Of a DNA stretch of 32,000 bases, positions 2,263 through 20,265 are shown one piece after another. Numbering within the stretch: the first letter of the stretch is position 1; every line of letters starts with the position of its first letter. The translations under genes were made by a program, and so were the position numbers. A model generated the notes under the pieces. That model did no database searches. It was not told the origin of the DNA and saw nothing but the letters and a program-made list of their open reading frames with translations. The stretch covers positions 600,001-632,000 of the forward strand of contig CP060232.1 of the NCBI GenBank assembly GCA_023898645.1. Reading direction: 5' to 3'. Source of the DNA: Candidatus Saccharimonadota bacterium. Lineage in GTDB: Bacteria > Patescibacteriota > Saccharimonadia > Saccharimonadales > Saccharimonadaceae.

Positions 2263-2331
2263 ATACCCTCCATGAAACGAAAAAGACGCTCCGAGATTGG
2301 CTACGTCTTAATAATTCGACTAGGTACGGGT

Positions 2332-2535
2332 TTATTTATCCCAGGGTCGTCCTGGTTTTGGTCGTTCTTTTAGTTCTTTTTTAACTAAGTCTTTGAGTTG
2401 TTTGTCTCCAGTGCTTGCAAGCAATTGAAGCATCAACTCGCTAAGTGTGAGTCCTTTTTGCTTTGCCACAATCTTCGCTCGCTCACGCAGATCGTCGGTT
2501 ACGCGTATTTGCATGCTGACTATCTTTCTGGACAT
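2332..2535 (-). CDS. Ribbon-helix-helix (CopG/Arc-like) DNA-binding protein
   Basis: N-terminal beta-strand then two helices (MQIRVTDDLRERAKIVAKQKGLTLSELMLQLL), as is typical of RHH repressors. It is the first gene leaving the AT-rich divergent region. Confidence 0.6.
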   Translation of the reverse strand: MSRKIVSMQIRVTDDLRERAKIVAKQKGLTLSELMLQLLASTGDKQLKDLVKKELKERPKPGRPWDK

Positions 2536-2539
2536 TTGT

Positions 2540-2774
2540 CCCTATTCTAACATGTATTACTCTTTAATGATATGCATTCGTATCTAGCCGAATTATTAAC
2601 GTACAACCTCTATATAAATAGTATTACTATTTAACATAAAAAGCAATACTAATTAAACATATTTATGATGTATTATTTACTAACTGTGCATAGGTAGTAA
2701 ACAGGTAATATTTAACAGTAGTATACATTTACTTTTTACTCTCTTCTTATATATACTACGTATAGGAGAGAGAA
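2540..2774. promoter_or_regulatory. AT-rich divergent control region with three imperfect direct repeats
   Basis: Very AT-rich 235-bp spacer between divergent genes. Repeats: GTATTACTATTTAACA (2621-2636), GCAATACTAATTAAACA (2643-2659) and GGTAATATTTAACA (2704-2717). SD GGAGAG at 2765-2770 precedes the GTG at 2775. Confidence 0.5.
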
Positions 2775-3563: not shown

Positions 3564-3564
3564 C

Positions 3565-3977
3565 TATCAGGACATGCGCTGACGTGACGATTGCCTGTAA
3601 GCTTGCGCACGGGTAATGGTCACGGCTCTTTCGCCATATAGTAAGTAGCTAATTGATATTTTATTGCTCGGCGAGTGTGGCAGACGTGTACGTTCTGTCC
3701 ACCGGACAGTACGTACCGACTGACGCGCTGGACGCGGCAACTACTAAACAATAATCAACCGATGTCGTGCCGTAGGTACGTCTCTGGTATGGTTCATTCT
3801 TGCACTTGAGGACTTCACTGCGGAACGCATGTGAATGTCCGAGAGGGTAAGTATGGAACATGCCTGTATGTTATTGGTTGGATAGACATTTAAATAGTCC
3901 TTTAGGGCTTTTTAAATGGTCTACCCGCTATATCTTTCCTGGCTCAGGCAGTTTTTCGTCTTGCCTAGGACGGTCAG
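3565..3977. other. Structured non-coding region; candidate oriT or single-strand initiation region
   Basis: About 410 bp without a credible ORF. Hairpins: 3688-3716 (12 bp plus one mismatch, 3-nt loop), 3810-3840 (13 bp, two bulges, GAA loop) and 3884-3922 (11 bp, one bulge). It lies between the replication-relaxation gene and the small-gene block. Confidence 0.35.
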
Positions 3978-4929: not shown

Positions 4930-5598
4930 ATGGATATTCCACTTTGGGCTTGGGCCTTAGGCTTTTTAGCGATAATAGCTGTAATCGAGCACTTCTCTGA
5001 AAAGAAAGATCGGTTAAGCGGTGTTGAAAGTAAAAATACAAACAGCGCCGATGATCTAGACCGAATTAGCGGATCCACGCTCGACTCCGTAGATCCTACT
5101 GTCATTCCGCGCAATCCGTGGGATGGCGATATAAATGGTAGAACTGTCGCACAGGGTAGTAGCTGGGATTTACTCAGGAAAGATGTTCTAAGCCGAGATA
5201 GCTACAGGTGTACGAACTGCGGCAGCAGGTCAAACTTGACGGTCGACCACAAGGTGCCACTTAGTCTTGGTGGCACAAACATAATGTCAAACCTAGCCAC
5301 TCTATGTAAAGATTGCCACGAACACAAAGACCAGCGAAAAATATTCGATAAAGCGTTCGATGCAAAAGATGACTACGGCAAAGACCATAGGCTTACTAGA
5401 AAAGTAGAAGTGTTATCGAGGGCCATCAACTCTGGGTCAAGGGTGACGATCGTGTATACCGACTACAAGGGTAACAAGACTAGCCGCATTATCTCTCCGC
5501 GACGATTAGCAAAAGATAAGGGTCGGATATATTGTATAGCGTATTGCCACCTGCGAAATGATAGACGCACTTTTAGACTGTCGCGCCTTGAAGTGTAG
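4930..5598 (+). CDS. Membrane-anchored HNH endonuclease with C-terminal WYL-like domain
   Basis: N-terminal TM helix (IPLWAWALGFLAIIAVIEHF). HNH motif (CTNCGS...LTVDHKVPLSLGGTNIMSNLATLCKDCHEHK). C-terminus VTIVYTDYKG...RIISPRRL...IYCIAYCHLRNDRRTFRLSRL resembles a WYL domain. Confidence 0.75.
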   Translation: MDIPLWAWALGFLAIIAVIEHFSEKKDRLSGVESKNTNSADDLDRISGSTLDSVDPTVIPRNPWDGDINGRTVAQGSSWDLLRKDVLSRDSYRCTNCGSRSNLTVDHKVPLSLGGTNIMSNLATLCKDCHEHKDQRKIFDKAFDAKDDYGKDHRLTRKVEVLSRAINSGSRVTIVYTDYKGNKTSRIISPRRLAKDKGRIYCIAYCHLRNDRRTFRLSRLEV

Positions 5599-5660: not shown

Positions 5661-5942
5661 CTAGCGATTAGCCTCGACAATCTCATGCCAGTTCACTCTG
5701 CCGAGTGAGGCGGAGAGCAGGTCGCTCGTCAGGCTAGACTCATCTATGTCGACAATCCAGCGCGCGTACTGCTCAAGCTCTTCAGCTTGCTCATCGCTGT
5801 CGAAGTTCTTGACGATACTACAGAGTTCTTGGTAATAGCATTCGTCACCAGTCAGCCACAGGTTCACCACCCATGTCTCCCGATTACACCACCCGTTATA
5901 CTCGGTGGCTACAGTTGATGTCTCTAGAGCTACGTTTACCAT
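5661..5942 (-). CDS. Small acidic hypothetical protein
   Basis: 93-aa ORF with an ATG start and SD AAGGAG. The motif YNGWCNRETWVVNLWLTGDE recalls small phage/plasmid proteins, but I cannot name a family. Confidence 0.55.
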   Translation of the reverse strand: MVNVALETSTVATEYNGWCNRETWVVNLWLTGDECYYQELCSIVKNFDSDEQAEELEQYARWIVDIDESSLTSDLLSASLGRVNWHEIVEANR

Positions 5943-6097: not shown

Positions 6098-6213
6098 AGG
6101 TCAGTACGTGAAGTAAGGAGTTTCATTTAACCGTCTGTTACAATACAAGCAGAAGATTCGTGTTTGGCTCGACTGCGAGAAAACAGGAGTCTTCTTTTTG
6201 CTATACTGTAATT

Positions 6214-6405
6214 ATGGAAATAGCAATCGGAATTGGTATCGGTGTCGTCATAGCAGCTTTACTAGGCAAGAAAAAGCGTGGCAAAACGACGCCGTATGAC
6301 CCATCAAAAACAAACACACCTCAAGAAACCCCCGAAGAGCGTAAGCGGCGCGAAACTGACGAGCTGATCACAACGGTATTACCAACCATAAATAACGGTA
6401 AATAG
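6214..6405 (+). CDS. Small single-pass membrane protein with a charged tail
   Basis: MEIAIGIGIGVVIAALLGKKKRGK... The ATG at 6214 lies 6 nt after TGcTATACT (6199-6207), suggesting a leaderless mRNA. The track ORF starts earlier, at the GTG at 6160. Confidence 0.45.
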   Translation: MEIAIGIGIGVVIAALLGKKKRGKTTPYDPSKTNTPQETPEERKRRETDELITTVLPTINNGK

Positions 6406-6415
6406 CCAGATCCCA

Positions 6416-6685
6416 CTAGCTTGCTTCGGGTACGCAGGTGTCCTCACGGCACGGCGCCAGCATAGCGTAGAGACTGAAGTAGAGATAATCACCGTCCAGA
6501 CTATCGATTCGGATCGATTTGAATCGACGTCGCACACGGCCATCATGGCGCTTGCATTTCTCCCAGCCAGCCGGCTCGCACCTGCAGTAGCCGCGTGCGG
6601 CTTGCGCCGGATTTTTATCATCAACTATAAAGCCACGGAACTCTCCGCACACTTCACACTTGGTTATTTCTGTAGATATATTCAT
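6416..6685 (-). CDS. Small Cys-rich (putative zinc-binding) hypothetical protein
   Basis: 89 aa with CEVC, CRC and further Cys. ATG start with SD AAAGGGA. No family recognised. Confidence 0.45.
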   Translation of the reverse strand: MNISTEITKCEVCGEFRGFIVDDKNPAQAARGYCRCEPAGWEKCKRHDGRVRRRFKSIRIDSLDGDYLYFSLYAMLAPCREDTCVPEAS

Positions 6686-6816
6686 ATCGTCCCTTTCTAT
6701 GGGCTGAATGGAGCACCGTGCCGTATGGTCGGTTGCTGGTAGGCCATAGAGTCAGATCTCTCGCTACGCTCTTGATATTAAATTGTTAACGTGTTACCAA
6801 TCTAGCATAAGCATTG

Positions 6817-7572
6817 CTACTTGTCAATGCGAGACAGATCCCAAGCGGTCACGATACCCAGTAGAGACTCACTTATCTTGCCGTTATGCGTTACAAATAC
6901 CGCTGCCACTCGCTTATCATCTTGTATGGCATGGTCAAACAAATCACGCACAGTGTACACGTCCGTATCCTTTGCCACAAAATAGTACAGATCAGTTTCG
7001 GAATCATCCGGAGTATCGAGGTATTCCTCTATGTCTACGAGCGTCCGTAACTCCGCCAGTTTCACATCATCATCAGCCGATGCCACGGCCCACCTAAGCA
7101 TTGATCGCTCGGACAGCACTCCGGCAAGATCCTCGCCGCGATACACCGGCACGGATGTATACCAATTCCTGTCCATGACACCCAACGCCTCATAGGCGTC
7201 ATCACCTACACTAAACACCACCGGCTTTTCTGTCATAATCTGAGACACTAACTGAGGTTTAGTAATTGATTCGTACAGCTGTTTTATTCCGCGGACAGTA
7301 TCTTCATGCGGATCGGCAATAGGGTCATCATCATAGTTATGGGAAAGCGCATTCCGTAGCTTGCCATACAGGCGCAAAGTGTCAATATGTTCGTTTACGA
7401 CGCGATCTTTTCCGTAATCCTGTAATACATCCAGACTACCGGCAAAAGATTGCACCTTCTTGCTTTGTTCGTGCGGAGCGAAGCCTCGCAGCTGTGGTAC
7501 CTTGCGTGCGCGTCGCAAAATATCATCCTCTAGCTTACTAAAAACTGTCAAAAATTCACTCGCTCTGCTCAT
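6817..7572 (-). CDS. HEPN (Swt1-like) domain protein fused to a CBS-domain pair
   Basis: Rx4H motif LRNALSH in an alpha-helical N-terminal half. Two CBS-like repeats in the C-terminal half (VSQIMTEKPVVFSV...VPVY...LAGVLSERSML and VRDLFDHA...AAVFVTHNG...LLGIVTAWDL). The ATG at 7572 sits 6 nt after TGcTATAAT on the minus strand. The track's GTG at 7608 is less likely. Confidence 0.7.
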   Translation of the reverse strand: MSRASEFLTVFSKLEDDILRRARKVPQLRGFAPHEQSKKVQSFAGSLDVLQDYGKDRVVNEHIDTLRLYGKLRNALSHNYDDDPIADPHEDTVRGIKQLYESITKPQLVSQIMTEKPVVFSVGDDAYEALGVMDRNWYTSVPVYRGEDLAGVLSERSMLRWAVASADDDVKLAELRTLVDIEEYLDTPDDSETDLYYFVAKDTDVYTVRDLFDHAIQDDKRVAAVFVTHNGKISESLLGIVTAWDLSRIDK

Positions 7573-7682
7573 ACGGTCATTATAGCAATAGATCTGCTGC
7601 TGCTCCACTGTAGTGAATAATGAGAATCTACGAACATAATTTCCAAAAACCTTGCGAATATTTGTTGAAAACTCACGAAATA

Positions 7683-7710
7683 TTGACTTTTATCATAAAT
7701 TTGATACAAT
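7683..7710 (+). promoter_or_regulatory. Promoter of the BREX operon
   Basis: TTGACT (7683-7688), 16-nt spacer, TGaTACAAT (extended -10, hexamer 7705-7710). The brxA ATG lies 6 nt downstream, implying a leaderless transcript. Confidence 0.55.
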
Positions 7711-7716
7711 TCTCTT

Positions 7717-8340
7717 ATGATTGGCGCTAAAGATGCGAGCAGATACACCGCAGGTCTCACTGGTGAAATTTTTCTCTTTAATGAGTCGCGTACGTTAGCT
7801 GGTTTTTTGGCACAAGGCGAGGATCCAGATGCACTTCGTACTCGTAATTTAGCCGAAAACCTCATTATGTATAAAAAAGACAGCAGCCTAAAGCGTGTTT
7901 CTCCACCGATATTCCGCCGCCTCGCCACGATGTCACCTGTCGCGCTCGAAATCTTTGTAAGTGCAGACCTGGAGTCATCACGCATCCTTCTTCTTATCGC
8001 CATCGCAAAGACAGATCGTCTGGTGCGCGATTTTTTGTTGACTGTCTACGCCGACAAGATAGCGCTCAAAGCCACTAAAATAGATAGATCAGATATCGAG
8101 CGCTACTTCGAATCAGTGTACGCCGAAGAGCCTCTTTTGCGGGATAAGTCAGATATCACTAAAATGAAGCTCAAGCAACAGCTTATGAAAAACATGGTCG
8201 AGGCCGGTCTCGTCAAAAAACAAGCTGACGGTTTTGTTGTTACGCGACCAAATATTACTACTCGTCTTGCCAATCAGTTGACCGCAGATGGTGACAGTGA
8301 GTATCTAAAAGCTTTAGGTGGTGAAGGAGGCGCATTATGA
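7717..8340 (+). CDS. brxA: BREX protein BrxA (DUF1819)
   Basis: About 200 aa, first gene of the operon, with an ATGA overlap onto brxB. Helical protein of the expected size and position. Sequence-level recognition is weaker than for the other BREX genes. Confidence 0.75.
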   Translation: MIGAKDASRYTAGLTGEIFLFNESRTLAGFLAQGEDPDALRTRNLAENLIMYKKDSSLKRVSPPIFRRLATMSPVALEIFVSADLESSRILLLIAIAKTDRLVRDFLLTVYADKIALKATKIDRSDIERYFESVYAEEPLLRDKSDITKMKLKQQLMKNMVEAGLVKKQADGFVVTRPNITTRLANQLTADGDSEYLKALGGEGGAL

Positions 8341-8909
8341 AAAAATCTATTCAAGATCGACTAAGGGACTTGCGTGGCAAAGTCCGCAGTCACGATCTGT
8401 CACAAGGCGGCGGGCTTGGTAATGAGGTTAATTACCATATTTTTGACTATGACCCTGAAGACGAGCAGGCTGTCATGCGCGAAGTCGCCAATATAGCCAA
8501 GAGCCTGAGCAATGTAAAAGTTTTCAATATCCATGACATTATCATCGAAATCCTCAAAGAAAAAAACTACCTCGAAAAATCGTTTGAACTTGAACAGAAA
8601 AAAGGCAGCGACTTCGTCAACAAGGCGATCATGCGCACCCTCAAAACCGATAGCAAAAACGGTCTCATCGTCGAAAAGATCGCTAGAGGCGTCAAAAAAG
8701 GCGATATCATTTTTCTTACCGGCATAGGTCAGTCGCACCAAATTATCCGCGCACATACACTGCTGGCCAACCTCCAGAGCGTTATTAACGACACCGAAAA
8801 TCCCGTTATTTTGTTTTACCCCGGCAGCTACGATAGGCAGGCACTCAGCTTGTTTAACGTATTTCCGGCCGAAAATTATTACCGAGCATTCAAATTAGTT
8901 GAGAGATAA
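8337..8909 (+). CDS. brxB: BREX protein BrxB (DUF1788)
   Basis: 190 aa with IFDYDPEDE near the N-terminus and FYPGSYD...NYYRAFKL at the C-terminus, which are the hallmarks I recognise for DUF1788. Confidence 0.85.
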   Translation: MKKSIQDRLRDLRGKVRSHDLSQGGGLGNEVNYHIFDYDPEDEQAVMREVANIAKSLSNVKVFNIHDIIIEILKEKNYLEKSFELEQKKGSDFVNKAIMRTLKTDSKNGLIVEKIARGVKKGDIIFLTGIGQSHQIIRAHTLLANLQSVINDTENPVILFYPGSYDRQALSLFNVFPAENYYRAFKLVER

Positions 8910-8927
8910 AGAAAGGTTCAAGCCCAT

Positions 8928-11900
8928 ATGCAATTGAAGGATCTATACAAAAAAGATATCACCCGTGAGATTCAGGGTGTCATTAAAGTTGACGACGAAC
9001 ACTCGATCGCCCAAGAGCTCGACGAATATATCGTCACCGATGAGATTGCCAAGCATCTCGATACATTCTTCGAAAGCTACAGCAAAGGACTCGGCACCTC
9101 TCGCACCGAGCAGATGGGCGTCTGGCTGTCTGGTTTCTTTGGATCAGGTAAGTCACACTTTCTCAAGATTGTCAGTCACTTGCTCGACAACCGCGAAGTA
9201 AACGGCAAAAAAGCCGTCGACTACTTCGACGACAAAATTCATGACGCCATGCTACTTGGCAATATCAAACGTGCTGGCGAGACGTCTTCTGACATCATCC
9301 TCTTCAATATCGACACCAAATCTTCGCTCGAAAACACCACGAGCAAGGATAAGATCCTTGCAGTGATCGAAAAAGTCTTCAACGAAAAGCTCGGCTTCAG
9401 CCACATTAATTTCGTTGCCGATATCGAACGCCATCTACAAGAAAAGGGTAAATACGAAGAGTTCAAAGCTAAATTTGACGACTGGTCATCGATTCGTTCA
9501 GACTTCGACTTCAACCAGTACGAAATCGCCGAAAAATACGCCGAAGTCATGGGCGTCAGCTCCGATGAAGCCAACAAAATCTTCGACAACCGCCGCGACA
9601 CCTACCAAGTTTCACCTGAGTCATTTGCTCAGCGGGTGCAGGAATACATCGAAAAACGCGGCAACGACCATCACGTAGTTTTCCTTATCGACGAAGTTGG
9701 TCAATATATCGGCAACAATGGCTCACTTCTGCTCAACCTCCAGTCAATCGTCGAAGAGCTCGGCGTACGCACCAACGGCCGCGCATGGGTCATTTGTTCC
9801 AGTCAAGAAGCCATCGACGATGTCGTAAAAGGTGTCAAAAAGGACGACTTCTCGAAGATTCTTGGTCGCTTCGACACCAAAATCAAGCTCTCTAGCACCG
9901 ATATCGACGAAGTTATCCGCCAGCGACTGCTCGCCAAGACAGACGACGCTACGACGTCACTGGTGTCCACTTACAACACTCGTCAGGCAGAGATTGCCAA
10001 CCTGCTTACTTTCGGTGAAGGTGGCACCTACAAGGCCACCTACCGCAGCGCTCAAGATTTTGCCGCTACCTATCCGTACATCCCGTACCAGTTCAAGCTC
10101 CTGCAAGATACCTATATGAGCATCCGTGAGAAAGGCTTTGCGGGTGCACACCTAAGCTCTGGTGCTCGTTCACTTCTCGGCGCTATCCAGGAGACCGCAA
10201 AGGCTCATGCAAACAGCGAGATTGGGACACTTGTACCGTTTTCCGCCTTTTTTGAAACCGTTGTTACGGCAATAGATAGCTCGATCATTCAAATATTCGA
10301 TCAAGTGGACAGGATGATTAAAGAAGGTGTACTTGAGCCGCAAGATAAAGAAATATTGAAGACGCTTTTTATGTTGCGCAGTGCTCAAGAAACGATGCCG
10401 ACCAATCTCGATAACCTAGCCGTCCTTTCAGTGACAAATTTGTCAGACAATATCCTCGATATCAAAAAGAATCTTGCCGATAGCCTGAAGCGGCTCGAAG
10501 ACCGCGTGCTCATCCAAAAGCTCGGCGACAACTACCGCTTCCTCACCGACGAAGAACAAGACATCAACCGCGAAATCAAAAGCCAAACCTTTGATCCGAA
10601 TGACATCTCGACTACGCTTGGCGAAGTGATTCGCGGCACTATCGACTCGAAGTACAAATACACTAATGGCCGTGTTTTCTCGCTCGATCTCTTCATGGAC
10701 GATAACAAAATTAATGGTGGCTCAAACGAATTAGCCCTCAGGTTCACCTCGGGCGAGCTACAATCTGTCCAGGCTGAATCGATGCGCCAAAGCAACGCAG
10801 CATTTATCATCACGCCACTGTCGATCGACCTCCGCAACGACATCGAAACTGCTGTAAAGGTTGAAAAATACATCCGCTCACAAGCTGGTATCAAGAACGA
10901 CCCAGAGCGCGACAAGATTATCGCCGCTCGCCGCACCGAAATGGAAGGCCTCAAGGAGAAGATCTCCGCTGACTTCGCCGACAATATCCGAAGCGCCGCT
11001 GTCGCCATCAACGGTACAGAAGTCGACATCCCAGCCCGTGAAAGTGTCACGACTCGCCGCGATCTCATCCTGGAAGAGCTCGTCAAATCCGTGTACACCA
11101 AGATCGAATACATCAAAGCACCGTGTAGCCGCAGCAATATCAAGCGTCTGCTGACACTGCCAAAAATGGAGCTCGAAGTCGCTACCGCCAACACCAAGGC
11201 CGAAGACGCCATCAACGAATACATCATCGAGCAGGCTCGCAACCACGTACCGGTCACCCTCGAAAGTATCGTGCGCGATTTCAAATCAGCCCCATTCGGC
11301 TTCACCGACGAAGATGTCGCCTACATCGTAGCGTACCTTATGAAAACCGAGCTAATCAGCTTAATCTACAATGGCACGACACTCGCACCAACTGCCGATA
11401 CCGCAGATATCTTGCTCAAATCAGCCAATGACGGCAAAATCACCATCAAAGTCCGTGAACGCATCGATAACCAACTGCTCGATACTGTCCGTAGCTTGGC
11501 GCGCGATTTGTTCGACACCACCGCACTCGGTGATACCGAGGACGCTATGGCAGATAGTCTACGCCACGAAATTGATACCAAGCTCGAAGCTACAACTGCT
11601 TATTTGCAGAAGTACAACTACGCTAGCTATCCGGGCAAGTCTGTCGTCGAGAGTGTCAATACGCTTCTTCGTGAGCTCAAACAAATCCGCGACACCAAAG
11701 ACCTGTTCGATGTGCTTGATGCCAAGCAGAACGACCTGCGCACGGCGTTCGACGCCTACAAGCCAGTTGTCAGCTTCTTTGAACACCAAGTAGCTATCTT
11801 TGACCGAGCCATAGCAGCTGTCAAAGATTACGATTTCGTTAGCTCGTCTATCACTGTTAATTCACCAGAAGTCACCCAGATTCGCGACATCTTGGCACAG

Positions 11901-12236
11901 GATAGCCCGTACGGTGACATCCCGAAGCTTTCGCCATTGACATCTGCCGTGGAGCAGGCTGTCAAAACTGGCCGCGACGAGCTCCAAAAGCGTGCCGACG
12001 AAGCCCGCAAGCTCGAAGAGCAGCGCCGCAAAGCCGAAGAAGAGGCGAGGAGGGCCGAAGCCGCAGGCCAGCAGCCAGCCGAACTACCAAAAGTCGCCAA
12101 ACCTGTCCGTTCGGGCGATCTCATCAACCGCACTTACTCGCTGAAGAGTGAGGCTGATGTCGACGCCATGCTCGGCGAACTTCGCCAGCGACTACTACAA
12201 GAACTTGCCGACAATGGCGAGGTAAGGGTTATTTAG
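8928..12236 (+). CDS. brxC: BREX ATPase BrxC/PglY
   Basis: 1102 aa. P-loop GFFGSGKSHFLK near residue 70, DEVGQY Walker-B-like segment, and a position between brxB and pglX. Confidence 0.9.
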   Translation: MQLKDLYKKDITREIQGVIKVDDEHSIAQELDEYIVTDEIAKHLDTFFESYSKGLGTSRTEQMGVWLSGFFGSGKSHFLKIVSHLLDNREVNGKKAVDYFDDKIHDAMLLGNIKRAGETSSDIILFNIDTKSSLENTTSKDKILAVIEKVFNEKLGFSHINFVADIERHLQEKGKYEEFKAKFDDWSSIRSDFDFNQYEIAEKYAEVMGVSSDEANKIFDNRRDTYQVSPESFAQRVQEYIEKRGNDHHVVFLIDEVGQYIGNNGSLLLNLQSIVEELGVRTNGRAWVICSSQEAIDDVVKGVKKDDFSKILGRFDTKIKLSSTDIDEVIRQRLLAKTDDATTSLVSTYNTRQAEIANLLTFGEGGTYKATYRSAQDFAATYPYIPYQFKLLQDTYMSIREKGFAGAHLSSGARSLLGAIQETAKAHANSEIGTLVPFSAFFETVVTAIDSSIIQIFDQVDRMIKEGVLEPQDKEILKTLFMLRSAQETMPTNLDNLAVLSVTNLSDNILDIKKNLADSLKRLEDRVLIQKLGDNYRFLTDEEQDINREIKSQTFDPNDISTTLGEVIRGTIDSKYKYTNGRVFSLDLFMDDNKINGGSNELALRFTSGELQSVQAESMRQSNAAFIITPLSIDLRNDIETAVKVEKYIRSQAGIKNDPERDKIIAARRTEMEGLKEKISADFADNIRSAAVAINGTEVDIPARESVTTRRDLILEELVKSVYTKIEYIKAPCSRSNIKRLLTLPKMELEVATANTKAEDAINEYIIEQARNHVPVTLESIVRDFKSAPFGFTDEDVAYIVAYLMKTELISLIYNGTTLAPTADTADILLKSANDGKITIKVRERIDNQLLDTVRSLARDLFDTTALGDTEDAMADSLRHEIDTKLEATTAYLQKYNYASYPGKSVVESVNTLLRELKQIRDTKDLFDVLDAKQNDLRTAFDAYKPVVSFFEHQVAIFDRAIAAVKDYDFVSSSITVNSPEVTQIRDILAQDSPYGDIPKLSPLTSAVEQAVKTGRDELQKRADEARKLEEQRRKAEEEARRAEAAGQQPAELPKVAKPVRSGDLINRTYSLKSEADVDAMLGELRQRLLQELADNGEVRVI

Positions 12237-12237
12237 T

Positions 12238-15200
12238 ATGAGCTCGATGGACAAAAAACTACTCAAAGACTTTGCTATGAAATCGCGCGAAACGCTGACC
12301 GCGCTTGTTGCCGCCAAACTTCAAGCCATGCACGTCACCGAAGATATCGCCTGGGTGCAAAAAGGCGAAGTTTACCAGGCTATCATCGATGGCCGTAATG
12401 TCACACTGTACCCGAGTGACAAAGACCGTTACGACAAGCTTCGTGCCGCAGTCAAAGCCGAAGGTATCAAGCAGATCACCGAAAAAGCCGCCTACACCTG
12501 GTTCAACCGCATTGTCGCCATCCGCTACATGGAGCTTCGCGAGATGTTACCACAGGGCAAACACAACGAATGGCTCGGTATTCGCGTATTATCAGACGGC
12601 AACAACGAACCCGACCCAGAAATCCTAAAGATCAGTAACTTGCGAAGAGCAGATCTCGACCTCCCGCTAAACGCCGATGATATCATCAAACTCCCACGCG
12701 ACGACCAAAAGTTCCGCGAGGTACTGTTTGCCGTTGTCAAAAAGCTCGGGGCAGTCATGCCAGACGTCTTCAACGGCGACACGACTAGCATTAACTTCCT
12801 GCTTCCAGACAACTTGCTCGGCAGCGGCGGTTTTGTCAATGAAATCCTCAAACTCCCCGTAGAGTGCTTCGACAGGGTCGAAGTCATCGGCTGGCTGTAC
12901 CAATACTACAACCAAGCCGAAAAAGACATCGCCATGAAAAAGAAGTCGGCGGTCGAAAAAGATGAGATCCCCTATGTCACCCAGATTTTCACCCCTGACT
13001 GGATCGTCAAATACATGGTCGAAAACTCCCTTGGTCGCTACTGGCTGGAGCATGGCGGCGACCCTAAGCTAGCCGACAACTGGAAATACTTGATCAAGAG
13101 CGACCAGCAAGTGACGACGACAAAGACTATGCCGAACATCGAAGACGTCACGTTTATCGACCCCTGCATGGGTAGTGGGCACATCCTCGTCTACGCCTTT
13201 GAGGTGTTTTACCAGATTTATCGTTCGCTGGGCTACGCCCCAGAGCAAATTCCAGAAAAGATCCTCTCGCACAACATCTACGGCCTGGATATCGATGACC
13301 GCGCTAAACAACTATCAATCCTCTCGGCTATGCTTGTGGCCAGGGAGTACGACAAAGACATATTCAGCAAAGACATTCAGCTGAATATTACTAGTGTCGC
13401 CGAAAGCAACGGCATGAGCAGCCTGCCAGACCTACTGAAAGGCGCCAGCAAAGACACCGCCGAATACCTACTCGACGCCTTTCGTGATGCCAAAGAATAC
13501 GGCAGTATATTGCGAGTCAAATCGCAAAACTACACCGACCTGCAAAGCCAGCTAGAAGAATTATCCCCAATAGAGAAACCACTTTACTACGCCAAAACAA
13601 AACAGCTCATCCACCAAGCAGACATTCTAAGTAAAAAGTACACGATTGCGGTGACGAATCCGCCGTATATGAACAAATACGACGCCAAATTAAAAGCCTA
13701 CATTGGTGCAAATTATCCCGAGACTAAGTCGGATATGTACTCCGTATTTATGGAAGTCCTAAGTGATCATCTCGTTAGCGGCGGACGCATGGCAATGGTC
13801 ACACCGGATAGCTGGATGTCCTTGACGGGGCAAGCCAAACTTCGCGAGCGTCTAGAAAACGAAGCTCACATATCGAGCATGATTCACCTTGGTAATGGCG
13901 CGTTCCCAGATGTCGTCGTGTCTACGACCGCATTTACGCTCGTAAAGGGCGATGCTATTTCGATCGGCGATTACATCCGAGATGTTACCGGCAACGAGAA
14001 AACCAAGTATGCCACCGCACTCGCCGCCATCGACGATCCGCACCACCCTCTCCGCTACCGCGCCAGCAACGCCGATTTCGAGGTATTCCCGGGCAAGATT
14101 ATTGCGTATTGGGCGAGCGAGGCTGTGAGGAAGGCTTTTGTCATTGGCGTCAATCTAAGGGGCAGTGCGTGGGAGCCTAGGCAGGGGGCGGCCACTTCTG
14201 ATAATAATCGCTTTCTTAGATTATGGTATGAAGTTAATAGCACGAAAACTAATCTGAACGCCGAATCTGCGATCGAAGCAACACAATCTGCAAAAAAGTG
14301 GTTCCCGTACAACAAGGGCGGCGAATTTCGTAAGTGGTACGGTAATAATGACTTCTTAATTAACTATGAAAATGACGGCGAAGAATTAAAGGGTTACGCT
14401 AAAAGCCTATATAAATCAGCAACTCGCACAATAAAAAGTATTAGTGAATATTTCAAACCAAGTATAACTTGGTCAAAAATCTCGTCCGGTTCGATTGCAT
14501 TTCGTTACAAACCAGCCGGACATATCTTTGATGTAGCAGGTACAAGTATATTCGCCGACGATGCTCAGGATCTCAAGTATCTTCAAGGCGTGCTTAACAG
14601 CAGTGTAATATTAAAAATATCTAGTTATTTATCGCCAACCCTCAACTTCGAAGTTGGTCAAATCGCGACTTATCCAATTATCCAATCGCCGCAATATCGC
14701 GATGAAGTCATTCGCCTGGTCGAAGAATGTCGTGAACTCAGTAAAGCCGATTGGGACGCCTTTGAAACTTCATGGGACTTCGAGCGTCATCCACTCTTGC
14801 CGACGAGTGGCGAGACCAAGCTAAGTGACATGTACGCCGTCTGGGAATCAACCGCCGAGGATCGCTGGAGTCAGCTAAAAGCCAACGAAGAGCGGCTGAA
14901 CGAAATCTTCATTGAAGTTTACGGCATGCAGGGTGAACTGACGCCGGAGGTAGAAGACAAATATGTCAGTGTGCGCAAGGCCGACCAGTCGCGCGAAGCT
15001 CGCTCGCTGCTGTCGTATTTCGTCGGTGTCATCTTTGGTCGCTATAGCCTCGATAGCCTCGGACTCAACTTCGCCGGTGGCGAGTGGGACGCCAGCGCAC
15101 AAGGTAAACTAGTCGACGAAGATAACATCGTACCGATCATGGATGGCGAATACTACACTGACGATATAGTGAAGAAACTGCGCGACTTCCTCGTGGCCGT

Positions 15201-15723
15201 CTACGGCGAAGCAACGCTGCACGCAAACATGGACTGGCTTGCCAATGCCCTGGGGCGCAAATCGCACGAAAACGCCGAAGATACACTGCGCCGCTACTTT
15301 GTCGATGATTTCTTTGCCGACCATTTCAAAGTTTACGGCAAACGCCCAATCTACTGGCAACTCAGCAGCGGTAAACAAAACGGCTTCAAAGCATTGTTTT
15401 ACCTGCACCGCTACCAGCCAAATCTCGTAGCCACCGTCCGTACGCAGTATTTGCTTAACACCCAAAACATCTACACCAAGCGCCTAGCCGAGCTGGAGGC
15501 AAAAACGACGCTAAACAACGACGAACTCCGCCTAAAAAACGACCTCGTGGCCAAACTCGCCGAGATCAAAAGCTACGACGCACTGATCGGCGTGGCCGCC
15601 AGCGAAGCCATAGAGCTCGACCTCGACGACGGCGTTAAGACAAACTACCCCAAGCTCAGCCACGCCGCTGCAGGCGTAAAGCCTGGCAGTGAAATCCTCG
15701 AGACGAAAGGGGTCAAGCTATGA
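12238..15723 (+). CDS. pglX: BREX adenine-specific DNA methyltransferase PglX
   Basis: 1161 aa. SAM-binding motif FIDPCMGSGH, catalytic VTNPPYM, and a conserved WFPYNKGGEFRKWYG segment. Confidence 0.95.
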   Translation: MSSMDKKLLKDFAMKSRETLTALVAAKLQAMHVTEDIAWVQKGEVYQAIIDGRNVTLYPSDKDRYDKLRAAVKAEGIKQITEKAAYTWFNRIVAIRYMELREMLPQGKHNEWLGIRVLSDGNNEPDPEILKISNLRRADLDLPLNADDIIKLPRDDQKFREVLFAVVKKLGAVMPDVFNGDTTSINFLLPDNLLGSGGFVNEILKLPVECFDRVEVIGWLYQYYNQAEKDIAMKKKSAVEKDEIPYVTQIFTPDWIVKYMVENSLGRYWLEHGGDPKLADNWKYLIKSDQQVTTTKTMPNIEDVTFIDPCMGSGHILVYAFEVFYQIYRSLGYAPEQIPEKILSHNIYGLDIDDRAKQLSILSAMLVAREYDKDIFSKDIQLNITSVAESNGMSSLPDLLKGASKDTAEYLLDAFRDAKEYGSILRVKSQNYTDLQSQLEELSPIEKPLYYAKTKQLIHQADILSKKYTIAVTNPPYMNKYDAKLKAYIGANYPETKSDMYSVFMEVLSDHLVSGGRMAMVTPDSWMSLTGQAKLRERLENEAHISSMIHLGNGAFPDVVVSTTAFTLVKGDAISIGDYIRDVTGNEKTKYATALAAIDDPHHPLRYRASNADFEVFPGKIIAYWASEAVRKAFVIGVNLRGSAWEPRQGAATSDNNRFLRLWYEVNSTKTNLNAESAIEATQSAKKWFPYNKGGEFRKWYGNNDFLINYENDGEELKGYAKSLYKSATRTIKSISEYFKPSITWSKISSGSIAFRYKPAGHIFDVAGTSIFADDAQDLKYLQGVLNSSVILKISSYLSPTLNFEVGQIATYPIIQSPQYRDEVIRLVEECRELSKADWDAFETSWDFERHPLLPTSGETKLSDMYAVWESTAEDRWSQLKANEERLNEIFIEVYGMQGELTPEVEDKYVSVRKADQSREARSLLSYFVGVIFGRYSLDSLGLNFAGGEWDASAQGKLVDEDNIVPIMDGEYYTDDIVKKLRDFLVAVYGEATLHANMDWLANALGRKSHENAEDTLRRYFVDDFFADHFKVYGKRPIYWQLSSGKQNGFKALFYLHRYQPNLVATVRTQYLLNTQNIYTKRLAELEAKTTLNNDELRLKNDLVAKLAEIKSYDALIGVAASEAIELDLDDGVKTNYPKLSHAAAGVKPGSEILETKGVKL

Positions 15724-18224
15724 ATCAAGAGATCGTAAATGGCCTAGCTAAACTTCTACATAACCCAAGCATTGCCGGGCGGCGAATCGTTACCTGGTAC
15801 GACGCCGATGGGGCGAATGCTGAATATTTAGACGATATCAAACAGGCACTGCTGGATGACGGCATTGACGTCGAGATTGTTATCTTCGACGACAATCCGC
15901 TATTTGTGCGTTACCATGTACTAAATGAGGTGCGTGAGAGCAATGTCATCATCTACCGACCAACCGAACAGCCAGAGAGCGTCGATAATCAGTTGCTCGA
16001 CATCGAACTGGCCAACGCCAGCGACGTGTTTATACCAGACGAATCAACCCTGACGTTGACGGCGCTAGGGCTTTCCGACCAGTTCCGTGGTGTCGTGAAA
16101 CGCAATGGGCGATTCTTCAAAAACCAAAAGCGGGCTCGGGATATCAAGAAGTTTCTGCCCGTGAGTGAACCAAATGACTTACAGATGGCGATATTCGCCA
16201 CACTGTTTGACGCCAATGATGCCCGCCTAGAGCAGGTGTTGGCTGCGATATTCGTGAACTACAGGCAATCACGTGATGATTTTACCAACACACTGAAGTT
16301 TGTAGATAGCGAAGCACTCGCTAGCTTGTTGAGTGAGTATTTCGGGTCTCAAGCAGTCGATATCGAAAAGCTCGATAACTTGTGGGAATCGGTGCTCATC
16401 AGTTACTTCAAGTCTACGGTGAGCGCAGACATAGACTTCGGTAGGTTCAAGAGCTTTGTGCTGCCAAACCACGGTAACATCCGTATCTTTGTGCGCGATG
16501 TGATGCGCCTGTTTCCAGATGAGTTTACGGCGTTTTCCGCTGATGTTAACAAAAAGTTCGGTCTAGTTAGATTACTTGAAGGCCGTGAACTAGCGGAATA
16601 TATCGACAGCGACGCCTTCGCCGAGATTGACGATATCGTGATTACAGAGATGATCAAACGACTCTCAGACAAAGATGATATAGCTGAGCTGCTCCGTAGC
16701 CGCGAAGTCGGGTTTTACTATGTGGCGCGAAAAGCTGACTACCAGATGCTTGCTGCTGCCAACAACTTCCGCACCACAGCACGCCGAATCATGACAGAAG
16801 TAAAAAGCGTCGATCGAGACACCGCAATCTCGCGTTACGCCGACGAGTTATACAAAGTCGATACAGCCTACCGTCATTTTAACTATTACTATGACCGTAC
16901 CGATAAAACCGATGAGTACATGGAGCTGGCAAAGCAAATCGAGTATCTGTACGGCGAAGAATGGATGCTGAAGCTTGCCGAAAAATGGGAAGAATCTTCG
17001 GAGGGTGAAAACTGGACGGCAACCAAGCACTCAATACTCAGTGAGTTTTATAGCAAGTACCTAACACCGCACGACGATAAAAAAGACCGCGTATTCGTGA
17101 TTATATCTGACGGCCTACGCTACGAAGTCGCCAAAGAAATTGCCGAGCAGCAAAAACTAATTGCTACCGGTGGCGATATCTCGACCAGCTTCGCCCTAGC
17201 GCTGCTGCCGTCTATCACACCCGTTGGCATGGCGGCATTGCTCCCGCACGACAAACTAGAGTTTGACGGCGAAACAGTGCTGGCAGACGGCATGAAAACC
17301 GACGCCAGCAACCGCGACAAGGTGCTAAAAGCCGCCAACCCAGACAACTTGGCTATTAAATACGAAGAAGTCCGCGCCATGAAGAAGTCAGAGTGGAAAT
17401 CGTTCTTTTCTGGCAAAAAATACGTCTATATTTACCACGACAAAATCGACATCACCGGCGAGCACGACGACATGGCGACATTTGCCGCCGCGAGCGACGC
17501 GATTCGTGAAATCACTGATCTCATCACCGACCTACATACGACATTTAGCGGCGTTAATGTACTCGTCACTGCCGATCACGGGTTTTTCTACGAAACCGGC
17601 ACAGTAGAGTCACGACGCAAAATGCCGAAGATTCCCGAGGCTGGCAAGCAGAAAGCTCGCTATGCGATAACCGCCGCACCAGACAAGTCGGCTATGAGCT
17701 ACCGACTCAGTGATATGTTCGAAGGCAATACTAAGTACATCAATACGCCACACTCCAAGGTCATCTTTGCCAAGCAGGGTGGCGTCGGCCGATACTACCA
17801 TGGCGGCGCACTGCCACAAGAAGTCGTCGTACCGATTGTCAACTTCAAATCCTCACGCACCAGTACAGCTAGGGACAGAGTAGGAATTACCTATATCGGC
17901 ATCTCGCTCAAAATCACCAATACTATTACGCGTCTGCGCTTCCTGCAAAGCGAGCCAGTTAGTACTGACCGGATAGCTGGTCGCTACAAGGCGTGGTTTG
18001 AGGACGCTAGCGGTGCAAAAATATCCGACGAAGTAACGATCATAGCCGATTCGACCGAAAAGGATGCCGGAAGCCGCGAATATCAAGAGAAGTTTGTGTT
18101 TGCAGCGCGGCAGTACAGCCCGGAAGAGACATACTTCTTGGTGATTGAAGATGAAGATGGCGTAGAAGTTGAGCGAATAGATTTCAAGGTAGATATAGCA
18201 ATAACCAACGATTTAGGATTATAG
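15720..18224 (+). CDS. pglZ: BREX alkaline-phosphatase-superfamily protein PglZ
   Basis: 834 aa. PglZ-type motifs VFVIISDGLRYE and VTADHGF. ATGA overlap with pglX. Confidence 0.9.
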   Translation: MNQEIVNGLAKLLHNPSIAGRRIVTWYDADGANAEYLDDIKQALLDDGIDVEIVIFDDNPLFVRYHVLNEVRESNVIIYRPTEQPESVDNQLLDIELANASDVFIPDESTLTLTALGLSDQFRGVVKRNGRFFKNQKRARDIKKFLPVSEPNDLQMAIFATLFDANDARLEQVLAAIFVNYRQSRDDFTNTLKFVDSEALASLLSEYFGSQAVDIEKLDNLWESVLISYFKSTVSADIDFGRFKSFVLPNHGNIRIFVRDVMRLFPDEFTAFSADVNKKFGLVRLLEGRELAEYIDSDAFAEIDDIVITEMIKRLSDKDDIAELLRSREVGFYYVARKADYQMLAAANNFRTTARRIMTEVKSVDRDTAISRYADELYKVDTAYRHFNYYYDRTDKTDEYMELAKQIEYLYGEEWMLKLAEKWEESSEGENWTATKHSILSEFYSKYLTPHDDKKDRVFVIISDGLRYEVAKEIAEQQKLIATGGDISTSFALALLPSITPVGMAALLPHDKLEFDGETVLADGMKTDASNRDKVLKAANPDNLAIKYEEVRAMKKSEWKSFFSGKKYVYIYHDKIDITGEHDDMATFAAASDAIREITDLITDLHTTFSGVNVLVTADHGFFYETGTVESRRKMPKIPEAGKQKARYAITAAPDKSAMSYRLSDMFEGNTKYINTPHSKVIFAKQGGVGRYYHGGALPQEVVVPIVNFKSSRTSTARDRVGITYIGISLKITNTITRLRFLQSEPVSTDRIAGRYKAWFEDASGAKISDEVTIIADSTEKDAGSREYQEKFVFAARQYSPEETYFLVIEDEDGVEVERIDFKVDIAITNDLGL

Positions 18225-18231
18225 GAGGCGC

Positions 18232-20265
18232 ATGATGGACGAGATTGACACAAAACTAAACCAAGTATTTCCGGGAAGAGTTGTCCGTAAAGACCTGACG
18301 AAGAAAATCAAGGAAGGTGCCAATGTGCCAGTGTATGTGCTGGAGTATCTGCTAGGTATGTACTGTGCAACAGACGATCCGGTGGCCATCGAAGACGGCA
18401 TCGCAACAGTAAAGAAGATCCTAGCTGAGAACTTCGTCCGACCAGACGAAGCGCAAAAGGTGAAGAGTAAGATTCGTGAGCTCAAAAACTACACGGTTAT
18501 CGATAAAATCACCGTCAAGCTCAATGAAAAGAAGGATCGCTACGAGGCGGAGTTTAGTAACCTTGGCATCAAAGATGCTTACATTGATGCTGAGATTGTC
18601 AAAAAGTTCGAGAAGCTCTTGGTCGGTGGCATCTGGTGTATAACGAAGATTTCCTATTTTCATGACGAAGAAGAGCGCAATAATCTACCGTTTGTTGTCA
18701 ATGACATCAAGCCGATTCAGATGCCAAATATGGATCTAGAGGAAGTATTCAACGGCCGTCGTCAGTTTAGTAAAGACGAATGGATCGATGCGCTGATTCG
18801 TTCGATGGGCATGGAGCCATCACAGCTCGATACCCGCCAGAAATGGCACTTCCTAGAGCGTGCCGTGCCACTTGTTGAGAATAATTACAACTTGTGCGAG
18901 CTTGGCCCGCGCGGTACCGGTAAGTCACATATCTACAAAGAAATTTCACCGAACTCTATCTTGGTATCTGGTGGTCAAACGACTGTCGCTAATTTGTTCT
19001 ACAATATGTCGAATAAAACCGTTGGCCTCGTTGGGCTGTGGGATGTAGTAGCTTTTGACGAAGTTGCCGGAATTACCTTCAAAGACAAAGACGGCATCCA
19101 GATCATGAAAGATTACATGGCGTCTGGATCGTTTGCACGCGGTAAGGAAGAAAAGAACGCAACCGCTTCGATGGTATTCGTTGGCAATATCAACCAATCA
19201 GTCGAGGTAATACTAAAGACATCTAACTTGTTCGAGCCGTTCCCCGAAGCTATGAACCGCGATACCGCGTTCTTTGATCGCATGCATTACTATCTGCCGG
19301 GCTGGGAGATTCCAAAGATGCGACCAGAGCTTATTACGAATAGCTATGGGTTCATTGTTGATTACTTGGCAGAGTTCTTCCGCGAGATGCGCAAGCGCAC
19401 ACACAGCGATGCTATCGACAAGTACTTTAGGCTGGGCAAGGAGCTAAATCAACGAGACGTGATTGCGGTAAAAAAGACCGTCTCAGGACTTGTAAAATTA
19501 CTGTATCCGCACGGTGAATTTAGTAAGGACGAGATCGAGGAAGTTATTCGCTACGCTATCGAAGGTCGTCGTCGTGTCAAAGAGCAGCTGAAGCGAATCG
19601 GCGGCATGGAATTCTTTGACATTCACTTATCGTACATCGACAACGATAACGACGAGGAGCGAATCGTATCCGTACCCGAGATTAGCGGCGACAAGTTGAT
19701 TTCTGACACAGCGCTCAAGGCTGGTCATGCATACTTTGTTGGTCGTGGTACATCCGGGCAGATCGGCACCTTCCGTATCGAAACCGAGACTCCTGGCGGT
19801 AACGGCAAGATGTCTATCACCGGAATTGGCACTGATAGGCTTACGAAAGAATCGATCAACACAGCTTTTCACTATTTCAAGGCTAACCGCAAAAGCATCA
19901 GCGCCAGTATGAACGTCGATAGTAACGACTTCTTGATTCATATCGAAGACCTGCAAGGGGTAGGCCCAAGTAGCGAAATTGCACTCGCAACGTTTGTATC
20001 CCTCGTATCATCTTCGCTTAAGAAGCAGGTCAAAGAAGGCATGGTCGTGCTCGGCAACCTTACGATCGGTGGCACAATCAGCAAAGTCGATGACTTAGCT
20101 GACACGCTCGAAGTTTGTTTCGACGCCGGTGCTCGCACGATACTGCTACCAATGTCATCTGCTGCGGACATCTCCACCGTACCCGCCGAAACTTTCTCAA
20201 AGTTCAACATCAGCTTCTACAATGACCCCGAGGATGCTGTGCGAAAGGCGCTAGAGATCGGATAG
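18232..20265 (+). CDS. brxL: BREX Lon-like protease BrxL
   Basis: 677 aa. Walker A ELGPRGTGKSH, AAA-like core and a C-terminal Lon-protease-like domain. It lies 8 nt after pglZ. Confidence 0.9.
   Translation: MMDEIDTKLNQVFPGRVVRKDLTKKIKEGANVPVYVLEYLLGMYCATDDPVAIEDGIATVKKILAENFVRPDEAQKVKSKIRELKNYTVIDKITVKLNEKKDRYEAEFSNLGIKDAYIDAEIVKKFEKLLVGGIWCITKISYFHDEEERNNLPFVVNDIKPIQMPNMDLEEVFNGRRQFSKDEWIDALIRSMGMEPSQLDTRQKWHFLERAVPLVENNYNLCELGPRGTGKSHIYKEISPNSILVSGGQTTVANLFYNMSNKTVGLVGLWDVVAFDEVAGITFKDKDGIQIMKDYMASGSFARGKEEKNATASMVFVGNINQSVEVILKTSNLFEPFPEAMNRDTAFFDRMHYYLPGWEIPKMRPELITNSYGFIVDYLAEFFREMRKRTHSDAIDKYFRLGKELNQRDVIAVKKTVSGLVKLLYPHGEFSKDEIEEVIRYAIEGRRRVKEQLKRIGGMEFFDIHLSYIDNDNDEERIVSVPEISGDKLISDTALKAGHAYFVGRGTSGQIGTFRIETETPGGNGKMSITGIGTDRLTKESINTAFHYFKANRKSISASMNVDSNDFLIHIEDLQGVGPSSEIALATFVSLVSSSLKKQVKEGMVVLGNLTIGGTISKVDDLADTLEVCFDAGARTILLPMSSAADISTVPAETFSKFNISFYNDPEDAVRKALEIG

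Follow-up and report, generated by a model that had tools for sequence, protein, structure and literature searches.

We propose that a mobile element carries, next to its anti-phage defence genes, an accessory that follows the status of S-adenosylmethionine (SAM) in the cell. The 32,000-nucleotide stretch of Candidatus Saccharimonadota DNA analysed here (contig CP060232.1, positions 600,001 to 632,000; hereafter the window) is part of an integrative conjugative element (ICE), in which three adjacent parts are found on the reverse strand beside a bacteriophage exclusion (BREX) operon: a gene for a protein with an N-terminal HEPN-like domain and a C-terminal pair of CBS domains (HEPN-CBS), a SAM-I riboswitch, and a small open reading frame (ORF) for a cysteine-rich protein. 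According to our preferred reading, to which we assign a probability of roughly 0.4, the segment 6416-7587 of the reverse strand is a three-part SAM-status accessory that would act when SAM falls, for instance, through a phage SAM lyase. A more specific version, in which this would be a riboswitch-wired immune accessory and the first of its kind, with the SAM-I riboswitch and a CBS-gated HEPN RNase standing guard against SAM depletion by phages, RNA cleavage and abortive infection as the outcome, and the small protein as an activator or timer, is put forward tentatively, as possible rather than probable. An earlier note on this DNA, made from the sequence, had suspected a SAM link for the HEPN-CBS/BREX pair; this idea gains independent support from the riboswitch directly downstream of the HEPN-CBS gene, which gates a conserved small ORF, and from the 5' neighbours of the gene, which are mostly SAM-dependent systems.

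The element between the two genes matches the full Rfam model of the SAM-I (S-box) riboswitch (RF00162) with 42.2 bits (E=7.6e-8; the gathering score is 44.4). Its orthologues score 45.5, 45.3, 45.3, 45.2, 45.3, 45.3 and 44.4 bits, and others reach 43.9, 43.2 and 40.7, with 44.4 bits or more being attained in seven loci that represent five of the ten distinct contexts scanned with Rfam. The conserved SAM-I core is present (AUCAAGAG, GCAACC, GGUGC). The spacer of ~130 nucleotides between HEPN-CBS and the small ORF shows a mean column identity of 84% among loci with HEPN-CBS proteins of 43-93% identity, that is, it is far better conserved than either flanking gene. In a structure test on 11 distinct sequences, which covered the helices P1-P4 and the pseudoknot between the P2 loop and J3-4, 92.2% of the cells pair, as compared to 33-42% with slid partners. 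Compensatory double changes are seen in eight pairs, those of the pseudoknot included, a result that none of 500 shuffles reached, with most of the double changes stemming from a single outgroup, the riboswitch of a host metK gene, and the ICE copies being too alike to add much. Specifically, the pseudoknot changes from CUGA/UCAG to CUAG/CUAG. The four-way junction and the pseudoknot are maintained by covariation. The minimum free energy fold of the region is indistinguishable from that of shuffled sequences (z=-0.56), a frequent outcome with aptamers that have tertiary structure, and was given no weight as evidence.

Two different expression platforms follow this aptamer. In most copies, the 3' strand of P1, GAUAUGAA, holds the AUG of the small ORF, and the Shine-Dalgarno sequence (AAAGGGA, 6690-6696) lies in P4; because of this placement, a translational OFF switch is predicted. 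In the groups of loci L055 (9832-10000) and L068 (9769-9950; labels of this form denote loci of our context survey), an intrinsic terminator comes after the same aptamer, and a separate Shine-Dalgarno sequence and ATG come next, so that a transcriptional OFF switch is predicted instead. Since two different platforms front the same gene family, we argue that SAM-repressed expression of the small protein is likely to be under selection. With its full-length match, conserved core, covarying junction and pseudoknot, and predicted OFF mode, the element resembles the canonical SAM-I riboswitches; whereas those control genes of methionine, cysteine and SAM metabolism, the copy in the window controls an orphan ORF for a Cys-rich protein on a mobile element in restriction/defence loci.

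As to the origin of the riboswitch, the host of L055 carries a related ICE directly beside its own metK gene (14644-15810), the SAM-I riboswitch of which (14536-14641) scores 49.4 bits. This host riboswitch resembles the ICE copy recognisably (nhmmer E=5.7e-7), a hint that the latter was acquired from the leader of a host metK gene. We considered, and rejected, the idea that a mere duplicate of the metK leader at the attachment site accounts for the ICE riboswitch: in L055, the latter is located 4.6 kb from the junction and has a gene of its own.

The product of the small ORF (89 amino acids) has eight invariant Cys/His positions (C10, C13, C34, C36, C44, H47, C79 and C84) and an RRRF stretch, and appears to be a basic, zinc-finger-like protein. 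Its family comprises 18 clusters only in a database of 5.8 billion clusters, and profile searches of Pfam, PHROG and PDB yielded no match. The gene is tied to its upstream neighbour at the DNA level, in that the last HEPN-CBS codons, ATT GAC AAG TAG (I-D-K-stop; 6817-6827), provide the -35 box (TTGACA) of the small-gene promoter. The ATTGAC core of this box is kept in all copies except the L055 group, being present also in L052, where there is no HEPN-CBS gene; L027 has TTGACG. The conserved C-terminal 'IDK' of HEPN-CBS may, accordingly, be constrained as DNA. A role of the small protein as a constitutive antitoxin was rejected, the riboswitch being predicted to keep it OFF at normal SAM.

The HEPN-CBS gene itself is an intact ORF that diverges from the BREX operon, as the earlier note had stated. 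Of the interval assigned to it there, 6817-7716, the part 6817-7572 is the gene, and, therefore, the remainder, 7573-7716, is a 144-bp spacer to brxA (ATG at 7717). There is an alternative GTG at 7608 that would give a protein of 263 amino acids; judging from the sequence, the true start is the ATG at 7572, because the conservation among homologues begins at MSRA and because L028 and L030 have a Shine-Dalgarno sequence before the same Met. The codons for 'YCYN' in the longer reading are the conserved TGCTATAAT promoter box, which is kept in L002, L026 and L029 while the rest of the spacer has diverged. With this -10 box 6 nucleotides before the ATG, the HEPN-CBS mRNA is predicted to be leaderless, which fits the sequence; the view that both divergent genes are leaderless agrees in the same way with the -10 box 6 nucleotides before the brxA ATG, as far as predicted starts go.

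The divergent arrangement over 144 bp and the lack of an adjacent canonical BrxR gene would suit the suggestion of the earlier note that HEPN-CBS replaces BrxR as the transcriptional regulator of BREX, acting through the shared promoter region. We consider this extremely unlikely. No NCBIfam or PADLOC model matches the protein and Pfam finds nothing besides CBS, so that these searches reveal no helix-turn-helix, WYL or other DNA-binding domain, in contrast to the BrxR-type regulators upstream of brxA with their winged helix-turn-helix and WYL (+WCX) domains. The catalytic motif described below is invariant; elsewhere, the gene is co-directional with restriction-modification (R-M) operons, at their 3' end; and the spacer, the -10 box excepted, is not conserved between the BREX-linked and the hsdM-linked copies.

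An exhaustive profile search (E<=1e-30) brought up a HEPN-CBS family with no fewer than 353 representatives of 50%-identity clusters; among the 150 matches listed, almost all are 225-265 amino acids long and align end to end. The N-terminal domain of the protein bears the string RNALSH, of the catalytic Rx4H type. A bare Rx4H string is expected by chance in many proteins; RNALSH is meaningful here because it is conserved across the family, and not by its mere presence. Across all of 125 family representatives, whose mean identity is 27%, only R73, N74, H78 and P142 never vary, and, in a set of 19 diverse N-domains, the first three of these are the only invariant positions, so that the motif reading of the earlier note is borne out. 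The pattern, R73-N74-x3-H78, has the form that is typical of HEPN domains, Rx4-6H with a polar residue after the arginine, and has it throughout the family.

The closest PDB profile matches of the N-domain are HepT HEPN toxins, the first of them weak (5yep_B, E=0.0076), followed by 6m6u, 6m6w and 7ae9; the alignments with HepT cover the motif, the preceding helix and the last helix, and are anchored on L-R-N-x-x-V-H. When the 125 members were scanned singly against Pfam, the weak matches, all below the curated cut-offs, were to HEPN_RiboL-PSP (38 members), HepT-like (37), DUF3644 (10), HEPN_Cthe2314 (10), HEPN_Apea (5) and DUF4145 (2; presumably a member of the HEPN clan), as well as to DUF6548 (21), a family with no known function. 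Every recurrent non-CBS match of known fold is, thus, to a family of the HEPN type, including DUF3644, which overlaps a HEPN family (PMC3710099). The AlphaFold2 (AF2) model of the N-domain comprises six helices and is all-helical (predicted local distance difference test score, pLDDT, 89; the full-length model has 87). A word-indexed search with the N-domain profile returned fragments only. Motif and profile evidence taken together suggest a divergent HEPN domain, with the fold unconfirmed; the subfamily check proposed in the earlier note gave consistent, weak matches of the HEPN type, none of them above a curated cut-off. The likeness to HepT (5yep, 6m6u, 7ae9) does not extend to the gene neighbourhood: a HepT-MNT toxin-antitoxin pair was ruled out, as no MNT antitoxin gene is adjacent, the neighbours being brxA and the Cys-rich ORF without a Pfam match.

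The C-terminal half is a CBS pair, as had been predicted: Pfam CBS (PF00571) matches it over two stretches, with 51.7 bits (cut-off 24), and the top 50 Foldseek matches of the full model, which returned nothing other than such matches, are all CBS-domain structures, mostly CBS pairs (E down to 1.7e-6). The top CBS-pair structures carry adenosyl ligands, namely, AMP, ADP and diadenosine tetraphosphate (Ap4A) in AcuB, AMP in CBSX2, and SAM and methylthioadenosine (MTA) in MJ0100. In the second CBS domain (CBS2), the ribose motif G239-x-x-T242-x-x-D245 is conserved in 94-96% of the 125 members. Position 138 is occupied by Y or F in 110 of the 125, and BLASTP aligns Y138 with Y157 of DS-11, a defence protein considered below, in which this residue is a validated adenine contact. 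Both elements of an adenosyl site, the ribose motif and the aromatic adenine contact, are present at the sequence level; the CBS pair looks able to bind a ligand, and the sequence cannot say which.

The genomic association points towards SAM-dependent systems. The contexts of the small ORF were sorted into 12 distinct groups. All 12 contain the riboswitch; directly upstream of the riboswitch and the small ORF, HEPN-CBS is found in nine, an HD_4 protein in one, and neither in two. On the 5' side of HEPN-CBS, a type I BREX system is the divergent neighbour in the window and in L002, an independent contig with a diverged BREX allele, whose PglX and BrxA are 72% and 77% identical to those of the window. 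A divergent hsdM-hsdS operon with a DUF4145 and a Shedu-like gene occupies the same place in L026 and L029 (in L029, the DUF4145 protein and the Shedu SduA_C-like nuclease are located at 3196-3906 and 1997-3193, respectively), and a divergent gene for a 403-residue protein without annotation does so in L059 and L060, which have the HEPN-CBS allele of L026/L029. In other loci, the neighbours are co-directional: hsdM-hsdS-hsdR-ygjP with a 32-nucleotide gap (L049, L050, L063, L064 and L065); a type ISP enzyme with a superfamily 1 (SF1) helicase/DUF559 protein, DUF2726 and DUF6994 with a 5-nucleotide gap (L048); an Eco57I-type methyltransferase (MTase) with ResIII, DUF2779 and DUF6994 (L062); and DUF5655, with a ParB-MTase gene nearby (L071). 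The remaining neighbours are an S24-like protein on a short contig (L027) and FtsK-like genes in a sister ICE (L030), whose type IV secretion system (T4SS) is 82-98% identical and which has no BREX. Hence, the 5' neighbour of HEPN-CBS is usually a SAM-dependent system, be it BREX, type I R-M, type ISP, or an MTase with ResIII.

This bears in two ways on the pairing with BREX on which the earlier note had centred: the pairing recurs in an independent contig, but it is not specific to BREX, type I R-M, type ISP and MTase-ResIII systems taking the same place and L030 having none. Similarly, of the co-occurrence that the note wished to see surveyed, the ICE subfamily provides an example, being mostly found by SAM-dependent modification and restriction systems, whereas the distant members are mostly not linked to defence.

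The association extends to diverged members. The HEPN-CBS alleles of L048, L049, L062 and L063 are ~29% identical to that of the window, yet they adjoin the riboswitch unit in exactly the same way, and in L048, L049 and L062 the gene begins 5-32 nucleotides after the last R-M-associated gene, gaps that suggest co-transcription. A further gene that recurs with HEPN-CBS homologues at the 3' end of type I R-M or MTase operons encodes a YgjP/SprT-like metallopeptidase (L007, 8868-9569; L049, 8411-9136; L025, 9599-10327); in L048 and L062, its role is taken by DUF6994. Several distant members that have no riboswitch are likewise linked to R-M, namely, in L007 (hsdR-ygjP-homologue-NucS-like), on a Chlorohelix plasmid (MTase, CBS and SprT/YgjP-like genes, in this order), and on Rhodococcus plasmids with an MTase and a restriction endonuclease (REase) nearby.

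In Bacillaceae, most of the homologues are chromosomal, with synteny within genera, the neighbours being ABC transporters, an RNPP regulator, a PD-(D/E)XK nuclease (possibly AddB), AcrB, NUDIX and similar genes. Such ordinary neighbourhoods would be expected if HEPN-CBS responded to energy charge, be it as an RNase for housekeeping or stress or as a non-catalytic RNA-binding regulator, and if its position by BREX were incidental. We regard this as quite improbable, given that the catalytic motif is invariant, that the close subfamily resides on mobile elements, and that both the ICE subfamily and the distant members in L007, L025 and L024 occur in R-M or defence contexts.

Proteins that combine the same domains have been described. 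DS-11 (found by DefensePredictor; WP_000257686.1), a single protein with CBS and HEPN domains, defends E. coli, for which it needs the R and H residues of its HEPN domain and the CBS tyrosine Y157 (PMC13092281). It shares with the window protein the union of a CBS pair and an Rx4H HEPN domain in one polypeptide, the equivalence of Y157 and Y138, and the equivalent CBS2 motifs (GIITTTD in DS-11, GIVTAWD here). The two differ in domain order, so that the window protein is no DS-11 member: DS-11, with 365 residues, has an N-terminal extension, the CBS pair and then a C-terminal Swt1-like HEPN domain, whereas in the window protein (251 residues) HEPN comes first and CBS last. BLASTP detects similarity in the CBS region only (E=4e-4), the HEPN domains giving no significant alignment; hhalign of the N-domain profile with the single DS-11 sequence was uninformative (probability 0.1%). 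Neither a riboswitch nor a small ORF nor linkage to R-M or BREX has been reported for DS-11 (PMC13092281). HEPN-CBS(-HD) fusions were noted already in 2013 (alr3009; Pelobacter gi 118580987) and predicted to link nucleotide sensing to RNA stability (PMC3710099); as described, they have Swt1-like HEPN domains and other architectures, and an HD protein is also what stands in for HEPN-CBS in L068.

HEPN domains with the Rx4-6H motif work as dimeric, metal-independent RNases, and at least 16 clades of them are linked to R-M, PrrC/EcoprrI being the worked example of a second-line HEPN RNase that backs a type I system (PMC3710099). With PrrC, the window protein would have in common a latent HEPN RNase that is genetically linked to type I R-M, gated by a nucleotide-sensing domain and proposed or shown to act once a phage disables restriction. 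PrrC, encoded within an hsd locus, has an N-terminal ABC-ATPase as its sensor and a C-terminal HEPN domain, and is released by the T4 Stp peptide, as opposed to a CBS pair and a riboswitch-controlled small protein in the window; the window protein has no ATPase domain and, as far as membership is concerned, only the R-M/BREX linkage is shared. Standalone HEPN endoRNases also adjoin the BREX core genes, where they have been read as suicidal second-line effectors (PMC12839542); the main text of that survey contains no mention of CBS fusions or riboswitches. The earlier note knew of no description of this pairing as a BREX accessory; the kind is known already (PMC3710099, PMC12839542), and DS-11 is validated (PMC13092281). 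By analogy, the window protein may work like DS-11 and the R-M-linked HEPN guards, although it is a member of neither group. A full-text literature search found no paper that joins 'SAM riboswitch' with BREX or restriction-modification and none that joins riboswitch, SAM depletion and phage, and the titles and abstracts returned on riboswitches in defence islands or conjugative elements contained nothing relevant. It appears, then, that the parts are known already, and that the N-HEPN/C-CBS domain order, the family and the riboswitch-wired trio are undescribed.

A number of observations weigh against a SAM-status accessory. The sample of contexts is small, partly redundant and without a background rate. 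The window riboswitch falls 2.2 bits below the Rfam gathering score, and its nucleotide 6744, in the P2 internal loop, is G (AUGG instead of AUGA), where the nine other ICE copies and that of the host metK carry A; this position, which corresponds to the kink-turn of SAM-I structures, may explain the score of 42.2 bits, and the change could weaken the switch. A Foldseek search with the isolated N-domain gave no match with E<1 in PDB or BFVD and does not confirm the fold, HepT appearing only at ranks 26-29 with E~9. The riboswitch and the small ORF occur without HEPN-CBS in the groups of L052 and L055 and behind an HD-domain protein in L068, while the sister ICE L030 has the module and no restriction system within 10 kb upstream. 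Most family members at ~30% identity, in Bacillaceae and others, have no riboswitch and lie in ordinary neighbourhoods. Finally, DS-11 has been modelled with ATP and not with SAM (PMC13092281).

Some of these points would be accommodated if HEPN-CBS were an autonomous, DS-11-like defence protein that senses a nucleotide (ATP, AMP or Ap4A) or a phage-made signal and is merely co-located with BREX and R-M in an ICE hotspot, with the riboswitch and the small ORF as a separate backbone unit. DS-11 does work alone (PMC13092281), most of the sampled members of the large family have neither the riboswitch nor the small ORF, the latter two are also found without HEPN-CBS, and no restriction system is adjacent to the module in L030. 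Against this stand the 29%-identity alleles, which keep the exact junction with the riboswitch, the stop-codon region that serves as a -35 box, the direct upstream position of HEPN-CBS in 9 of the 12 small-ORF contexts, and the short gaps to R-M-associated genes in L048, L049 and L062 with the co-transcription that they suggest. On balance, an autonomous HEPN-CBS, which is the chief alternative, seems to us doubtful, if clearly conceivable. The riboswitch and the small ORF may, nevertheless, be an independent unit, and the effector slot upstream of it may be exchangeable. In L068, this slot is taken by an HD_4 protein (9126-9719), whose gene is part of an island that also includes hsdR, GmrSD_N and an ADP-ribosylglycohydrolase-Macro protein.

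The same SAM-OFF logic and the same association with methylation-dependent systems could also serve self-protection. Low SAM would leave the host DNA under-methylated and open to attack by the BREX or R-M system of the ICE itself; the RNase would then arrest growth, and the small protein, whose basic, zinc-finger-like character fits binding to nucleic acid or protein, would dampen restriction until SAM recovers. Such restriction alleviation, which is purely inferential, is unlikely in our view: Pfam, PHROG and PDB searches gave no homology to a known anti-restriction or restriction-alleviation factor, and L052, L055 and L030 have no adjacent restriction system.

The SAM-status accessory, which we prefer, can be envisaged to work as follows. 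HEPN-CBS would be made constitutively, from its own leaderless promoter in the window or as the last gene of an R-M operon in other loci. An adenosyl ligand on the CBS pair would set the geometry of the HEPN dimer, so that the putative RNase activity would depend on the ligand; the CBS sensor might read SAM, the lyase product MTA, or another adenosyl compound. At normal SAM, the SAM-bound riboswitch would hide the Shine-Dalgarno sequence and the AUG of the small ORF, keeping the small protein off. Both BREX and type I R-M require SAM and are defeated by the SAM lyase of phage T3 (bioRxiv 10.1101/2023.02.27.530186). Once such a lyase destroyed SAM, BREX or type I R-M would be disabled, the riboswitch would open, and the small protein would be made; the latter, possibly by interacting with HEPN-CBS, and the CBS sensor would together switch on or tune the RNase, and translation would be halted as a second line of defence, possibly with abortive infection as the result. 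The present analysis shows the anatomy and conservation of the module, the identity of the riboswitch with its OFF-type platforms, and the association in the genomes; RNase activity, the nature of the ligand, contact of the small protein with HEPN-CBS and abortive infection are inferred.

The coordinates of the features in the window are given in the table.

Table. Features of the window that bear on the HEPN-CBS/riboswitch/small-ORF module and its surroundings.
Feature	Coordinates	Strand	Basis or remark
HEPN-CBS gene, 251 aa	6817..7572	-	intact ORF, ATG start; homologue conservation
All-helical HEPN-like N-domain, residues 1-105	7258..7572	-	AF2 model, motif, profile matches
RNALSH, Rx4H catalytic-type motif, residues 73-78 (R73, N74, H78)	7339..7356	-	direct reading
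CBS pair / Bateman module, residues 109-247	6832..7248	-	Pfam CBS, Foldseek
Extended -10 promoter TGCTATAAT of HEPN-CBS (predicted)	7579..7587	-	6 nt upstream of ATG; read from sequence
Small-gene promoter TTGACA-17-TAGATT (predicted)	6799..6827	-	-35 box from last HEPN-CBS codons
SAM-I (S-box) riboswitch aptamer	6681..6781	-	Rfam RF00162
Small Cys-rich basic ORF, 89 aa	6416..6685	-	conserved downstream of every close HEPN-CBS homologue
brxA promoter-like site TTGACT-16-TG.TACAAT	7683..7710	+	ends 6 nt before brxA ATG (7717)
Complete type I BREX operon (brxA, brxB, brxC, pglX, pglZ, brxL)	7717..20265	+	Pfam and PADLOC
Large serine recombinase gene	402-2063	-	3' end overlaps tRNA-Trp
tRNA-Trp gene	384-458	+	overlaps serine recombinase gene
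Gram-positive-type T4SS genes	24182-31732		

All genes of the BREX operon match their models over the full length, except BrxC, which is covered at 1-1043 of 1190. Ten nucleotides after the end of brxL starts a gene for an AAA_13 ATPase (20275-22611, forward strand), which matches the PADLOC candidate PDC-S06 (E=1.5e-151) and may be a further BREX accessory. On the other side, past the small ORF, a 222-residue protein with HNH and WYL domains is encoded (4930-5598, forward strand), at a distance of 1.2 kb from the module and of 2.1 kb from brxA; it is not a canonical BrxR and is possibly a ligand-sensing nuclease or regulator.

The window is an ICE, as follows from the serine recombinase gene that overlaps tRNA-Trp, the Replic_Relax-like gene and the Gram-positive-type T4SS genes. 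The overlap of the recombinase gene with tRNA-Trp is probably the attachment site and the left end of the ICE; the same arrangement is seen in L055. A DUF7249 protein (5661-5942, reverse strand) and a small membrane-anchored ORF (6160-6405, forward strand) are kept with the module in L001 and L030 and are probably ICE backbone genes. HEPN-CBS copies that are 92-93% identical have been binned to metagenome-assembled genomes of unrelated phyla, Candidatus Saccharimonas and Caldisericales (L001, L002), which suggests either recent horizontal transfer of the ICE or mis-binning. IMG/VR was scanned for each of the three parts (for the riboswitch, by its core) and yielded no match; within this collection, then, phages do not carry the module.

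The findings touch upon the question of how cells notice phages that defeat BREX or type I restriction by destroying SAM. Two independent small-molecule sensors, an RNase-fused CBS pair and a SAM riboswitch, lie beside a SAM-dependent defence system on a mobile element. The analysis also defines a large N-HEPN/C-CBS family, whose N-domain has no Pfam, NCBIfam or PADLOC match above threshold. If the proposed mechanism is true, the window would contain the first known case of a riboswitch at work within an anti-phage system, the SAM-I regulon would gain a new, non-metabolic member, and the module would represent a new type of guard, one that monitors a metabolite instead of a protein. It would, in addition, provide a testable ligand hypothesis for the recently validated class of CBS-HEPN defence proteins.

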